This document shows positions 676-61,682 of a stretch of DNA of 64,000 nucleotides, piece by piece. The DNA comes from Eledone cirrhosa (lineage: Eukaryota), in NCBI GenBank assembly GCA_964016885.1, contig OZ024753.1, positions 18,228,001-18,292,000 of the forward strand, written 5' to 3'. The translations under genes were made by a program, and so were the position numbers. The number at the start of each line of letters is the position of its first letter. Within the stretch, counting starts at the first letter, position 1. The notes beneath the pieces were generated by a model. The model was given only the letters and a program-made list of their open reading frames with translations. It was not told the DNA's origin and made no database searches.

Positions 676-718
676 GTCACTGAAGAGGTCACAGAGTGTG
701 TGACGAAAGAACTATGAC
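676..718 (+). ncRNA. Minimal type I hammerhead ribozyme motif
   Basis: gtca-CTGAAGA-g-gtcaca/tgtgac-GAAA-gaac-TA-tgac; helix I covaries with the copy at 20818 (ggca/tgcc). Confidence 0.75.
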
Positions 719-2118
719 AATATATAAACTATCTGGTTGTGGAACCAACCAACCAACCAGAAATTTATAAATTTATAAATTTATTATAAATTTATTATAA
801 TAATAAATTGAAGTGAAAGCAACTGGTGCGTGTGTTTCTTATTGGCAACATGACCCTCCCAAAGTATAACAATATCGGTTTCAACACACGATTTCAGATA
901 AATAATCTTGCTAAACAAATTCAGAAACGAAATATATATATATTGGTAAACGGAAAAGAAAATGCTGACAAATTGTTCCCAGTGTAAAATAGTTTAATTA
1001 GGAATAAGTAAAAATTAGTAATAGTATTGTTTAGTATTCAGTTTTGGTCTTAATTTTTACCGGTTACGCATTTCTAAGGCTTTTCCAAAATAATTTTGAG
1101 ATAGAGCGCCCGTGATGTTTGCTCTAATCTGATTAGTTTTGGAAATTCTACCTGTTTTATGTTAAAAAGTGGCTCCAGATGTATTAAAATAAGTTTCGCG
1201 CCAATTCGTGTTGCAAAAATTCTTGTGGTCAAAACAGTTTTGATTGGTCGGTAGAGGGTATGTGAATGTTAAAAATTTATTTGGCGCCAAATGTAGGTTT
1301 GTGTCGGCTGATTGAGAAGTCACTGAAAAATAAGTCTTTCAAAACAAATATGTGTGTGTGTGTAGTAGTAGTAAAGAGGTTCGTTGTTGTGATAATGGTC
1401 AGCAGGGATATGTGTGCGACCGCAGCCTGTTGACAGTTCAAATGCCTATTAAGACAAGTGTGTGTGTGTGTGTGTGTGTAGCAGGGTAATTCGTGGTAGA
1501 GGGATGGTCAGTAGGAATGTGTCTGTACGTGTATGGGGGATATATTAACATGTTAACAGATATTTTTTCATCTTGTGTCTTATACAGAGAAGTGCGTGTG
1601 TGTGTGTGTGTGTATGTATTTTTGTATGTTAATATACACGTGTGTATGTGTTTGTGTATATGTGTGTGTGTGTGTGTGGGTGGACCAATATTTTTGTGAT
1701 ACTGGTAAAAATGGTGTACATTATTTGATATTTTCAGTAAAAACGATTCTCTCAATAGAACATCAAAATCCTTAATATTAAAAGGTGTGAAATGATATAT
1801 AGTATTGGCATAATACCAAGGTGTGTGTAGGTGTCCAGATTGTACGTACTGCAAGGGGAATCCATTAGGCCTTGCCGTATTGGAATACTTGTGTACAAAT
1901 ATGTATGTGCCCATCAGTGTGCAATGCATGTGTGCGTTTATGCATGTGTGTGTGTCGGCACGTTTATATCTATAGACATCAAAATGTATGCAAATTTGTG
2001 TATATTTGTGTTGCACCATAGAACATGTGTGTTTACGTATGTCATTGTGTTTATATGTGGATAGAGATGTATGCTGATGTACGTATGTATGTTGACGTGT
2101 GTATGTTGTGGATTTGTT

Positions 2119-3131
2119 TTAGGGAGAAGTGTTTAGACGGGGTCCGTATTTGTTAATAAAGTGAGATGCCTTGCTGATGCGCTGGGTGTGGGTGGCATTA
2201 TCTTTAAATTTGTAGAAGGGAAAGATTCTGAAGCTGGGATGATTTAGGGCGGCACTGGTATCAATGTGTTCATTCAGTGGTATTTTCCTGTATTCCTGTA
2301 TTTTAATTTGGGATCTATGGACAGTCATGCGTTGGCGGGGGCTGTTTTTGGTCTGGCCTATGTATTGTTCTCGACAACCTGAGCAAGTTAATACATATAT
2401 TAGATTTTCTGATGCGCATGTGAAATTGTGTTTTACTATAAAACGTTGTCCTTCTTTGAAATAGAATTCCGAACCCTCTATTAGGTTGATGCATATGCCA
2501 CAGTTGGGTCTATCGCATTTTTTTTACTGTGGGTTTCGTTGTTGTGGTTGGAAGTATTTTGGCATGTGTTACGATGTTTTTCATTGACTTAGATTGTATT
2601 TTTCTCTTTATGATATCGTGTGTTCGTAGGATTTGGTTCATTCTATGGTCCTTTTTCAACACAGGGATGTTCTGGAGGATGGTGTCAAAGGCCTCATTGT
2701 TGAGGGGGTTGTGTGTGGAGATGTATGGAAGAGCTTTTAGTTTCGGTTGATTTACTTTAGGGTGTCTAAGGTCCTGGGTACTGAGTTTTAGGGCACGTTG
2801 GATTCCATTGTCAATTAGTGATGCAGGGTAGTCCCTGCCTATGAGTGTGTCCTTTAGTTCTTGTAACCGTAAGTAGCAGGTATTTTTATTGGAGACTATA
2901 GTACAGATTCTCTTGGCTAAGTTCTAGGGAATATTAATTTTAATGTGTCTAGGGTGGCAAGAGTTGAAAGGAAGATATTGCTTGGAGTCTGTGGGCTTGT
3001 AGTATATGTCTGTTTCTATTTTTTTGTTATGGATGTTAATGAGGATGTCGAGGAAGGGGAGTTGTTGATGGCTGTATTCCATCGTGAAGTTAATATTCGT
3101 GTTGAGCCCATTTATAAGGGTGTAAAATTCT
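2119..3131 (-). pseudogene. 5'-truncated PLE (Neptune-like): RT C-terminus/thumb, Cys linker and GIY-YIG
   Basis: [48 protein letters not shown]...CDRPNCGIC..FTC.SENLIYVLTCSGCREQYIGQT..RMTVHRSQI..P.LN; one stop at 2924 and at least one frameshift; 5' end abuts (TA)n. Confidence 0.9.
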
Positions 3132-3477
3132 TTATATATATATATATATATATACACACACACATATATATATACACACACACACACACATATATATATA
3201 TATATATATATATATATATATACATATATATATATACGTATATATATATATAAATATATATATACATATATATATATATATATATATATATACATATATA
3301 TACACACACACACATATATATATATAAATATATATATACATATATATATATATATATATATATATACATATATACACACACACACACACATATATATATA
3401 TAAATATATATATATATATATATATATATATATATATATATATATATATATATATATATATATATATATATATATAT
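3132..3477. repeat. (TA)n/(CA)n compound microsatellite
   Basis: Direct reading. Confidence 0.95.
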
Positions 3478-3700
3478 TATTGTTATACTTTGGGAGGGTC
3501 ATGTTGCCAATAAGAAACACACGCACCAGACGATTTCACTCCAATTTATTATAAATTTTATTTATAATAAATTGGAGTGAAAGCGACTGGTGCGTGTGTT
3601 TCTTATTGGCAACATGACCCTCCCAAAGCATAACAATAACGGTTTCAACACACGTTTTCAGAAAAAAGGATCTTGCTAAATAAATTCAGAAACGAAATAT
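3478..3700. repeat. Fold-back of the PLE terminal sequence seen at 805-935
   Basis: 3478-3556 is the reverse complement of 3562-3637; the right arm continues to the element end gaaacgaaatatata. Confidence 0.9.
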
Positions 3701-4388
3701 ATATAGTATTGTTTACCACTTATAATTGTGAATAATGAGGACTTGTGAATTTCATGCTATTCTATGCGACGTATAATTCGTTCTACTCAATATCTCATGA
3801 CCACACAATAGAACGTCAAAGCTGGAGAAGAGTGTTATCGTAACTTTTTCCATTCCTGACAGACATCTTCAGAATTTTACACAAACTGTCTTGCAGTGTT
3901 TATTTACAACTCTCCACACTTGATATTAGTTAAATATTAGTTTTTGACATCAGCACTGAAAATCGATACAAAAACATTTTGTTCAGTTTGTAGCGTTTGA
4001 AAAACGTATATATAGCAACAACATGTTTTAAATATCTATATCTAGAGAAAGCTTAAGCAGATAAAAAGAGAAACCCGTATAATGCATGTGCAATATGGAT
4101 CCATCAGAAATATAATACCCTCCATATATTTGTATAACTAGTAAACCTCCTTCAGGGATGTGTAACTTCGGAATATCTTTTATTGCCGAATAGAATGCTT
4201 TGTGGTATTTATTCGGGATATGTGGATGTGAGATCAGAAAAAGTAAGGAGTTTAAATTACACAAGAGCCTGCTTTAATTTTATAATTACAAGTTCGATAA
4301 AAATGATACCTGTTACGTTAAGCGGTTTAACATTAACTATATTTCGTTCTCTCCCCATCACTCTTTCTTTCCCCCTCCCCATCTCTCT

Positions 4389-59561: not shown

Positions 59562-59823
59562 ACAATATATTGAGAAACAAACAGATACATGCGGACACAC
59601 ACATATACATGAATATATCCACATTCATCCCTGAGTTAATGGTACTTCATAATGTACTTTTAGCTCTGATACTGGTTCAGTCTAGTCCATTCGAATTGGT
59701 CTGTCCCAGTTATTCATAGAGCAACATCGGTTAAGGTTGGCACCATTAACTCAGGGATGGATGTGGATATATTTATGTATATGTGTGTGTCCGCATGTAT
59801 CTGTGTGTTTCTCAATATATTGT
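59562..59823. repeat. Inverted repeat, ~83 bp arms, ~95 bp spacer
   Basis: acaatatattgagaaaca..ccctgagttaatggt / accattaactcaggg..tttctcaatatattgt. Confidence 0.9.
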
Positions 59824-60555
59824 ATATATATATATATATATACAAACATTGACATTAAAACGTATCTAAGTGGTTGATGTCTGAAGTGGTTTTAAATAAA
59901 TTTGTAATAAATGTAATAAAATATTTACCGAAAACAAACTAAAGTCTTCTAAACATATGAAAAGAAAACATTTGTTTAAAACCAAACAAAATATTGACTG
60001 AATTCGAGAAATAAATAGTCTTCTATCCTAGATCAAGTACATTGTTGCTTTAGATCCTATATAGACAAGTGTTTCAACAATTCATTTTATAACTACATTC
60101 ACCTAAAACATCAATAAACTAGAAAAACCAAATTCTTGATCATGAAAGAAAAAAGGAAATCGTATCGCTGGAAGCCATAGATTAAAACAGTAAAAAAAAC
60201 AAAACATAAAACAAAAAGGAAAAGCCGAGCTAAAAGAAAGGAATTAATTATAATGTAACAATAACTAAAGTAATCTCATTTGTTAGAATTGATGATTTAA
60301 CTCGACATGCTAGAGCCAAGCCGAGTTTAAGTTAAAACAGCCTAAGCTATCACTGACTGGGATGAAACACAGACCTGATGTTTGGTTTACGTAACGAACT
60401 CCTTCACTATACATAGATACTCACACAAATCCATATAAATCATAAGACAGTCCTATATTGTTATCTGCACTGCTAGAATTGATGTAATGTAATGTTAGAT
60501 ACATTTATGATATAAGCGGAGAATAAGATAAATGTATAGAAAACATTAACGAGTA

Positions 60556-60756
60556 ATATTTCTACTTTCTGCACAAGGCCAGTAATTACCCCAGTGCATT
60601 ACTGGTACTTTATTTCATCGACCTCGTAAGGATGAAAGGCACAGCTAACCTTTTCGTGAGTTGAACTCAGAACGTAACTCTATATTGAAGGACCATAACT
60701 CTATGTTGCAAAGCATGGCGTCTGATGCTCTACCGATACTGCCAAACCACTGCCTT
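60556..60756 (-). mobile_element. SINE family A (diverged)
   Basis: Core and head; flanking acattaa(c/t)gagtaa duplication. Confidence 0.85.
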
Positions 60757-61573
60757 AGACATTAATGAGTAAGATCAAAAATCTACACTGGTTATCTATT
60801 GGGGATATGAGAGTTTTAAATTTTCTTAAGATCTTAGATATCAAAGTTTTTATTTCTGCAAATATTGCATGGTCCTTCATATTTGAAATATGATTTTGCT
60901 TTAGTTAAAATATTCTCCGTAAGTATATATTGGTTGTTTGAATTTCTAAATCTCCGGTTTATCTGGAAAGCGATGAGTTATGGATATTGTACTATTTTGT
61001 GAGGTAAATTGTTGAATTTGAGCGTCAATGGTTTGAAAGGGCGGAACCTAATCCGGGATTGCTACGGAGAACTAATAATACTTAGACATAACTACAGAGC
61101 TAAAATCCAACTGATAAGTTGTAGGTTAAATACAATTATTCGCCGCTTGATTTATGCCGATGTATGCCCATAAATATCATACATACATCCAGCAATTAAT
61201 CTCTAATTTATTGTCTCTTTTATCGGACCCTCTACACGTATCTATGTACATCTATAATCTAGTTCCCCACCAACGAATCCTGATAAGAACACTTACTCAA
61301 AAACTACTACTATGTACTTACAAGCCCTCACTTATTTATTTATTTATCTCTTTATATTTTCCATTCTCTCATTTTCTTACTTTTTAAGTACCCTATCTTA
61401 TATTCTACTTTTACTTTTTACATCTGTAACTTCTCTACCTATTTACCATACATGTATTATTATTGATGTTATTGTTTAGATTATACGCTATTTTATTATT
61501 GATGTTATTGTTTTAATTATACGTTATTTCTCTATATAAATCTTGCCTCGAGGGAATTATTTTCATATCTACA

Positions 61574-61682
61574 TGCTCTGATGTGTTGACCATAGGTGAA
61601 TAATGTATTGGAGATCGGATAACGCAACATCAAGCGATTAGTGAACTCTAGACCCACATGATCAACGAAACAATTGTCAGTA
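61574..61682 (+). ncRNA. HHR-like motif (A9U) with long loop II
   Basis: tgct-CTGATGT-gttgacca...tgatcaac-GAAA-caattg-TC-agta. Confidence 0.65.

Follow-up and report, generated by a model that had tools for sequence, protein, structure and literature searches.

Self-complementary helix III words of hammerhead ribozymes in Penelope-like end repeats of Eledone cirrhosa are likely products of compensatory drift rather than a selected dimerisation code

Why should the hammerhead ribozymes of a single locus carry so many different palindromic words in helix III? The question is raised by a 64,000-nucleotide stretch of the Eledone cirrhosa genome (contig OZ024753.1, positions 18,228,001 to 18,292,000; hereafter, the window), in which an initial annotation had listed short words lying between the GAAA and UH elements of hammerhead cores and had suggested that different palindromes could restrict pairing to copies of the same family. 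We consider it likely, with good confidence, that these motifs are type I hammerheads in the end repeats of Penelope-like elements, that their helix III, as predicted, folds only in paired copies, that a two-ended transcript would excise itself in cis, and that the words reflect compensatory drift and not a selected code. The hammerhead design itself, with a palindromic helix III and words that differ among families, is already published (Cervera and De la Pena 2014, PMC4209133). No published proposal of a family-specific code or of heterodimers was found in the literature searched, and subscription papers may discuss either.

The hammerheads were sought on both strands by a scan requiring an exact CUGANGA core or its U3-A8 variant, a folding helix II of 8-110 nucleotides (nt), GAAA, 0-10 free bases, UH and a helix I adjoining the core; helix III was left unscored to prevent circularity. 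This blind scan returned 14 exact-core matches, compared with a mean of 0.08 (maximum 1) in 60 block-wise dinucleotide shuffles, its thresholds having been loosened after a stricter first version that gave 8 matches against 0.41. Permitting one core mismatch added 8 matches against 0.6 per shuffle (15 shuffles). The 14 matches have a helix I of 4-12 base pairs (bp) and a folding helix II; one of these two helices is weak at 45.9, 39.7 and 49.0 kb. Helix III, although unscored, is fully self-complementary in 11 of the 14 when G-U pairs are allowed. Because the arms of a hairpin are always complementary and its centre cannot pair in a monomer, the central four bases were taken as the informative part of helix III; in 6 of the 8 lineages that the blind scan found they are self-complementary, the background rate being 0.157 (p = 3e-4). 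The same holds for 12 of the 14 curated groups, a biased list in which some groups were found through the words of the initial annotation.

The curated list (Table 1) comprises 41 sites in 14 sequence groups; an all-against-all BLAST of 30 sites had given 15 groups, one of which (55434-) was then dropped. Helix III pairs fully at 33 of the 41 sites, at 23 by Watson-Crick pairs and at 10 with G-U pairs. Every core base is present at 20 sites, 16 of which are palindromic, and the remaining 21 are damaged, 17 of them palindromic. Three scan matches were set aside: 19400+, whose helix I has an energy of +1.8 kcal/mol; 13461+, which has one core mismatch and no related hammerhead copy; and 55434- (55364-55440-; CGGATGA ... 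GAAA GTTGAT TA), which has one core mismatch and no related copy, overlaps an abundant short repeat and may be a chance match.

Each word listed by the initial annotation does stand directly after GAAA where it had been placed: TGCGCA at 12276+, 12055-, 58833- and 62193-; CTAG at 25790-; CTCGAG at 57063+; CGCGCG at 57648+; CTACGTAG at 59228-; CTAATTAG at 17835+ and 17722-; CGTACG at 45914+; CCACTGG at 35056- and 35223+; CAATTG at 33026+, 34363+, 39694- and 61667+, to which 8996- and 40731+ can be added; TATGTA at 41319+ and 49552+, among others; and TATATA at 49053+, among others. The description of these words as mostly palindromic fits the count above, but it omitted the exceptions, namely GAAC at 676-718 and 37244, GAGC at 20822 and CCTCTGG at 57914. 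Similarly, many of the listed sites are hammerheads, but those at 34.3, 33, 57.6, 61.6 and 12 kb and both copies at 17.8 kb are among the 21 damaged sites. Distinct words are indeed present, but calling them family-specific goes too far for CTCGAG, CGCGCG, CGTACG, CTACGTAG and the CAATTG at 9.1 kb, each of which is single in its group within the window.

Could such motifs arise by chance in AT-rich, foldback-rich DNA? Among GAAA-N6-TH sites outside the hammerheads, 18 of 215 are self-complementary; an Rfam search of the window gave no match at the gathering score; and a helix-III-blind pattern of the superfamily formed by groups F1, F2 and F3 also matches unrelated DNA, at 12 metagenome and 3 viral-contig loci. 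However, none of these 15 loci has a palindromic word and most lack helix II, so that we took them as chance matches, and chance is opposed by the excess over shuffles, by repeated families with covarying helices and by the placement of the motifs downstream of endonuclease genes. A chance origin is therefore refuted for the set as a whole and is scarcely conceivable as the explanation, and the claim of dimer-type type I hammerheads with palindromes beyond chance is borne out; 45.9, 57.6 and 55.4 kb remain weak single sites.

Nearest-neighbour energies were calculated for helix III both as a hairpin and as a two-copy duplex. As a hairpin it ranges from +0.4 to +6.0 kcal/mol (+2.4 to +6.0 for the 4- and 6-letter words), and as a duplex from -2.2 to -17.9. 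These modelled values make it likely, in our estimate, that helix III needs a dimer in order to fold. With the core, helix I and helix II in place, each active site would, on the double-hammerhead topology, combine CUGANGA, helix II and GAAA of one copy with UH and the 3' arm of helix I of the other. The strand path implied by PMC4209133, which describes a double hammerhead, would enter one core at GAAA, run through helix III and leave the other core as UH and the helix I 3' arm; on such a shared path, helix III and both helices I would all form between copies. We regard it as unlikely that the longer-helix variants instead act as ordinary monomers whose palindrome simply provides the two arms of a hairpin. 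Such folding is easiest for CCACUGG and CCUCUGG, each a 3-bp stem with a triloop (+0.4 kcal/mol), and for CUACGUAG, a 3-bp stem with a tetraloop (+1.5 kcal/mol), and CCTCTGG breaks the central symmetry in an exact-core copy; yet a monomer would not demand the self-complementarity of the unpairable central bases seen in 12 of 14 groups and in 6 of 8 blind lineages, nor does it suit the hairpin energies of the shorter words.

What, then, is conserved in helix III? Groups F1, F2 and F3 align as a single superfamily with helix I and flanks in common, so that TGCGCA, TATGTA and TATATA, which had been treated as separate words, are variants within one lineage: TGCGCA occurs in 4 copies, TGCGTA in 1, TATGTA in 8 and TATATA in 4. 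In the alignment of 13 copies every cell of helix III is paired (100%), the pair types being AU/GC/GU and UG/CG/UA, whereas slid controls pair in 28-65%; the covariation score of 0.229 was reached in none of 500 shuffles. Self-complementarity is thus kept through compensatory and G-U changes, which supports the view that it, rather than the sequence of helix III, is conserved, as the initial annotation had asked to be checked. A possible origin of TATGTA by CpG decay of TACGTA was rejected for the master, since 8 copies carry TATGTA and none carries TACGTA or TACATA. We suggest that only self-complementarity is constrained and that the words wander through G-U intermediates, the loss of cross-family pairing being a by-product to which helix I contributes no less than helix III.

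The alternative that families pairing in trans were driven to distinct helix III words, together with helix I, so as to avoid cross-activation or parasitism can be weighed by the pairing of unlike copies. Seventeen representatives gave 136 pairs, in which helix III was called compatible within 1.5 kcal/mol of the homodimers and helix I with at least 3 bp on both sides. Helix III was compatible in 11 pairs, helix I in 9 and both in 3; 119 pairs were blocked by both helices, 8 by helix I only and 6 by helix III only, and the median penalty of a mixed helix III was about 11 kcal/mol. Different palindromes would accordingly destabilise the mixed helix III in 125 of the 136 pairs, as a selected code predicts, but helix I alone blocks 127, and specificity is thus not encoded by helix III. 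When each group was represented once (91 pairs), helix I was compatible in 2, helix III in 6 and both in 1, helix I alone blocking 89; F8 with F9 was the sole doubly compatible group pair under all 9 threshold settings. Moreover, the 6 pairs with compatible words exceed the 1.44 obtained with random palindromes of the same lengths (P = 0.013, 300 draws), and of 36 pairs, 6 have the same six-letter word, where 0.6-1.9 would be expected. Most families are thus kept from pairing by their words, but to the same degree by helix I, and chance alone would have given more distinct words. That they collide more often than random palindromes is the opposite of what selection for distinct codes would predict; the excess of shared words may come from common ancestry. 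About ten different words do occur within 64 kb, and F1 against F2 is a single case in which helix III alone separates relatives: helix I still matches (8+8 bp in F1 with F2), and helix III differs by 6.3 kcal/mol between F1 and F2 or F3. However, the F1-F2 dimer retains a net -11.5 kcal/mol relative to two monomers, so that discrimination there is leaky, and a two-ended element has its own partner in cis. Hence we judge a selected code most improbable, and family specificity is likely a by-product.

Might related families nevertheless activate one another, the short non-coding copies (F3, F9) pairing in trans with an autonomous relative (F2, F8) because both helices have been kept? Three pairs are fully compatible on paper: the TATGTA copies at 52.6 and 49.5 kb (helix I of 12 and 8 bp, no helix III penalty), the TATATA copy at 61.8 kb with that at 49.5 kb (7 and 8 bp) and the CAATTG copies at 61.6 and 33 kb (4 and 4 bp). 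Non-LTR retrozymes (LTR, long terminal repeat) have also been proposed as non-autonomous Penelope-like derivatives (bioRxiv 10.64898/2026.07.22.740005). Against this, common descent accounts for the compatibility, 5' truncation is expected to yield short copies (PMC8557442), and coding masters of F3 and F9 elsewhere, with separate transcription, are compatible with the data; we consider cross-activation quite improbable. Sharing CAATTG is not enough to permit it, as had been suggested: of the six CAATTG pairs only the 33 and 61.6 kb copies also match in helix I, the other five having a mixed helix I of 0-1 bp. Very improbable, in our estimate, is the further idea that helices I and III form a two-part address for trans activation, by which F3 with F2 (TATGTA) and F9 with F8 (CAATTG) borrow the hammerhead of an autonomous partner and the TGCGCA group F1 escaped by a change of helix III alone.

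The window is AT-rich (GC 0.25-0.44), with many (TA)n and (CA)n tracts and broken fragments of GIY-YIG endonuclease and reverse transcriptase scattered through it, and it reads as animal nuclear DNA. Seven of nine Penelope-type coding fragments have a same-strand hammerhead 146-1743 nt downstream. At 34..534 an endonuclease end is followed after 146 nt by the GAAC hammerhead at 676..718; its C-x4-C-xx-C linker is unlike that of the Hydra-type elements. Since the 64 kb contain 38 sites, chance may account for some of the longer distances, and probably does for that between the 38.3 kb fragment and the hammerhead at 37244. The element at 41.5-43.7 kb appears by its motifs and C-terminal GIY-YIG domain to match the Hydra clade: the CxCX5C linker reads CNCRNKSNC at about 43.3 kb (with the same pattern at 18.3-18.9, 31, 38.3-38.9 and 39.8-40.5 kb), DKT stands in place of DKG (KSDKT in the open reading frame (ORF) at 41781), and RWR lies close to the N-terminus. 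TATGTA hammerheads (41281+ and 45447+) stand at both ends of this element, 4.2 kb apart, in end repeats that are 83% alike over 286 nt. Group F6 is a small version of the same plan, with 39720+, an ORF fragment, 40713+ and an inverted copy at 39713-. Placement in such repeats (pseudo-LTRs) is clear for F2 (both ends), F6, G and F14; no ORF linked to F1, F3, F4, F5, F7, F8 or F10-F13 was found in the window. A hammerhead at each end of an element would provide a partner on the same RNA, and with both ends cut, the RNA set free would be a unit of about 4.16 kb (41331-45495) whose start lies about 180 nt before the ATG.

Several observations weigh against compensatory drift in cis-paired dimers. 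First, two of the nine coding fragments lack a hammerhead within 2 kb downstream (one has it at 3.7 kb, one has none). Second, group G (3 copies, with exact cores in the curated list) and CCTCTGG are not palindromic and are exceptions to the rule, and the 9-10-nt helices (CCACTGG, CTACGTAG), at only +0.4 to +1.5 kcal/mol as modelled hairpins, may work as monomers. Third, the covariation test concerns 13 related copies with few independent events, and the count of pairs changed on both sides was equalled by 51 of 500 shuffles. Fourth, the representatives used for cross-pairing are single worn copies, some damaged and one a composite of two copies, so that matches in a mixed helix I may be undercounted, and weak selection for distinctness could be masked by a common descent of the CAATTG groups. 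Finally, the dimer activity of Penelope-like hammerheads in vitro is low: the statement that such ribozymes cleave efficiently as dimers was overstated, PMC4209133 giving 'some, though low' activity, and PMC6765202 considers that they likely cleave as dimers, aided by a tandem layout, at very low rates.

Inversion is also frequent. In eight cases two hammerheads on opposite strands are set back to back with 7-1955 nt between them, and the foldback centres fall 4-76 nt upstream of the core (39636-39797, 34943-35339, 58731-59134, 11896-12467, 25558-26234) or inside it (17631-17922, at 17.8 kb), which implies that many insertions consist of little besides a ribozyme with its 3' tail, doubled as an inverted repeat and flanked by (TA)n tracts. 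Inverted foldback pairs would offer no same-strand dimer in cis and would form a hairpin RNA instead. Since half of the copies are damaged and many are inverted, most copies in the window are likely inactive.

Other features of the hammerheads deserve mention. Helix II is 52-97 nt long in six groups, in some copies with predicted branching (8980-9105-, 33719-33801+, 34270-34377+, 56968-57078+, 57577-57662+, 59210-59299-, 61574-61682+). In group G the G and C are retained, but the AA or AG between them is not self-complementary (AGAACU, AGAGCU), so that a dimer would contain tandem purine mismatches. At 46533-46711+ about eight tandem repeats of a 22-bp unit, in which the helix I arm, a decayed core and the beginning of helix II are joined, stand directly before the GAAA-TATGTA at 46729.

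Four public DNA runs mapped over 59140-62080 gave summed contig depths of 379,912, 50,851 and 69,163 at three hammerheads, against 6-12 in unique bins; these depths are not copy numbers, and they show that the hammerhead repeats of this interval are abundant in the genome. In the same runs F12 is present in a second organism. Among the 40 of 387 differences listed, none falls in 59208-59236 or 59271-59305 (the F12 core, helices I and III and the base of helix II) and 9 lie close by, which fits conservation and is no proof of it. The highest depth of the read overlay belongs to a repeat of about 200 bp without a hammerhead, present in at least 11 copies in the window and probably resembling a short interspersed nuclear element. 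At 62619-63998+ lies a reverse transcriptase of the long interspersed nuclear element type (PF00078, E=4.9e-33) with a cysteine-rich PHD-like stretch, open at the window end, and at 48172-48522+ a 37-bp tandem array (9.5 copies, 95% matches) unrelated to the hammerheads.

Table 1. Hammerheads, Penelope-type coding fragments and an abundant repeat in the window.
Feature	Position	Strand	Remarks
Penelope-like GIY-YIG endonuclease end, C-x4-C-xx-C linker	34..534	+	ORF; PF01541 E=2.9e-4, under the Pfam cut-off
Hammerhead, group G	676..718	+	exact core; helix III AGAACU, not palindromic
Hammerhead, group F7	8980..9105	-	exact core; 97-nt helix II; CAATTG; helix I UUCCA/UGGAA; fold z=-3.69
Damaged hammerhead, group F9	10129..10175	-	CGATTG; inverted partner ~10848-10894+, CGATTT
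Foldback pair of TGCGCA hammerheads, group F1	12036..12295 (12098-, 12233+)	both	both cores damaged, CCGATGA
Foldback pair of 3' halves, group F14	17704..17853	both	GAAA-CTAATTAG-TT without CUGANGA
Hydra-type endonuclease fragment, CxCX5C	18280..18852	-	tblastn; 558 nt upstream of CTAATTAG remnant
Hammerhead, group G	20818..20860	+	exact core; GAGC, not palindromic
Hammerhead, group F5	25775..25817	-	exact core; CTAG; damaged inverted partner 25963+
Damaged TATGTA hammerhead, group F3	26462..26528	-	inverted partner 28090+ with TAAA for GAAA
Damaged hammerhead, group F9	32995..33041	+	CAGAAGA core; CAATTG; helix I UGCU/AGUG
Damaged F14 copy with surviving 5' half	33719-33801	+	
Damaged hammerhead, group F8	34270..34377	+	CCGATGA; GC for UH; long helix II; CAATTG
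Damaged TATATA hammerhead, group F2	34759..34824	-	ATGATGA; 3'-half foldback copy 34882+
Foldback pair of CCACTGG hammerheads, group F4	35036..35242	both	35089- exact core; 35190+ damaged
Third group G copy	~37206-37248 (37244)	-	GAAC; helix I down to 2 bp
Foldback pair, group F6	39679..39755	both	39713- exact core, CAATTG, weak 2-bp helix II; 39720+ damaged
Hydra-type reverse transcriptase-end/endonuclease fragment	39835..40523	+	flanked by same-strand F6 hammerheads 39720+ and 40713+
CAATTG hammerhead in 3' pseudo-LTR, group F6	40709..40747	+	exact core; one-base insertion beside cut site
TATGTA hammerhead in 5' pseudo-LTR of Hydra-clade element, group F2	41273..41338	+	predicted cut after 41330
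Decayed Hydra-clade Penelope-like ORF, reverse transcriptase and C-terminal GIY-YIG	41513..43704	+	RWR, DKT, CxCX5C; stops, frameshifts
TATGTA hammerhead in 3' pseudo-LTR, group F2	45439..45503	+	predicted cut after 45495; 3'-half copy 46729+
Hammerhead, group F13	45893..45927	+	U3-A8 core TTGAGAA (45895-45901); CGTACG; helix I only 2 bp
TATATA hammerhead, group F2	49011..49072	+	exact core; helix I broken
TATGTA hammerhead, group F3	49513..49575	+	exact core; 12-bp helix I
Second Hydra-clade copy, 5'-truncated	50609..52675	both	inverted damaged hammerhead 50664-; endonuclease 50711-51121+; exact-core TATGTA hammerhead 52611-52675+
Hammerhead, group F10	56968..57078	+	exact core; 84-nt helix II; CTCGAG
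Damaged hammerhead, group F11	57577..57662	+	CTGACTA; 61-nt helix II; CGCGCG
Hammerhead, group F4	57848..57925	-	exact core; CCTCTGG (broken odd palindrome); 11-bp helix I
Foldback pair of exact-core hammerheads, group F1	58813..59058	both	58876- TGCGCA; 58996+ TGCGTA; fold z=-5.34; 3'-half copy 62193-
Hammerhead, group F12	59210..59299	-	U3-A8 core TTGATAA (59288-59294); 59-nt helix II; CTACGTAG; high-copy repeat
Hammerhead, group F8	61574..61682	+	damaged core CTGATGT; 82-nt helix II; CAATTG; helix I UGCU/AGUA
TATATA hammerhead, group F2	61804..61861	-	exact core
Copies of the ~200-bp repeat	10975-11242, 15850-16344, 21230-21353, 23812-23967, 26992-27183, 27704-27930, 44749-45016, 55085-55416, 56180-56366, 56761-56882, 60559-60766		

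This study adds about 14 hammerhead groups, some with an unusually long helix II, to a known class. The words TGCGCA, TGCGTA, TATGTA and TATATA constitute a natural compensatory series in support of the dimer model, and the groups can serve as test material for asking which role hammerheads play in Penelope-like elements. Selection for trans pairing between families, if it were demonstrated, would represent a new form of recognition between mobile RNAs, although the evidence from the window leans against it; a two-part address, if true, would amount to kin recognition and parasitism among retroelements at the RNA level.

How do these hammerheads compare with known systems? PMC4209133 describes pseudo-LTR hammerheads with a palindromic 15.2-16.2 and loop 3, many consensus families per genome, opposite-strand pairs 100-700 bp apart and a U3-A8 core variant; its Fig. 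S3 shows different palindromes among families of one genome (in the mosquito Aedes, CGCG and GGCC inside UA..UA) and the consensus 'GAAAN Palind NUH'. The window copies share with these the type I topology, the CUGANGA/GAAA/UH core and its U3-A8 variant, the palindromic helix III, the position in end repeats, the many families and the opposite-strand pairs; the U3-A8 cores at 59.2 kb (TTGATAA) and 45.9 kb (TTGAGAA) are like the variant known from Schistosoma elements. In contrast, most groups in the window carry inserts of 6-8 letters, longer than the minimal form with its 2 letters; helix II measures 52-97 nt in six groups, where 7-8 bp are reported for minimal Penelope-like hammerheads; several groups lack the usual G10.1-C11.1 pair; and group G has a non-palindromic GARC loop.

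The Hydra clade of Penelope-like elements with a C-terminal endonuclease, defined by Craig et al. 2021 (PMC8557442), carries hammerheads and inserts in (TA)n; inverted 5'-truncated copies, like the back-to-back pairs of the window, are described for Penelope-like elements. Compared by motifs, the element at 41.5-43.7 kb resembles it in the order of reverse transcriptase and GIY-YIG, in CxCX5C, DKT and RW(K/R), in its end-repeat hammerheads and (TA)n-rich flanks, and in its partial tandems and inverted truncated copies; it differs in having RWR for RWK, a 1.7-kb 3' region, and stops and frameshifts. Retrozymes have been linked to pseudo-LTRs (bioRxiv 10.64898/2026.07.22.740005). The double hammerheads of newt and axolotl satellite retrozymes and of the avocado sunblotch viroid occur in short head-to-tail tandems or replicating circular RNAs with contacts between loops 1 and 2, whereas the window copies are dispersed or inverted end fragments. 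No head-to-tail array of 150-450 bp with a hammerhead per unit appeared in the tandem-repeat or self-BLAST output of the window; given this, and because the close pairs are inverted, membership in the non-LTR retrozymes was rejected. Double hammerheads are nevertheless described in viroids and axolotl retrozymes (PMC6466107, PMC7229834), and the satellite retrozymes of newt and axolotl and the avocado sunblotch viroid share with the copies studied here a weak helix III that is rescued by the pairing of two copies.

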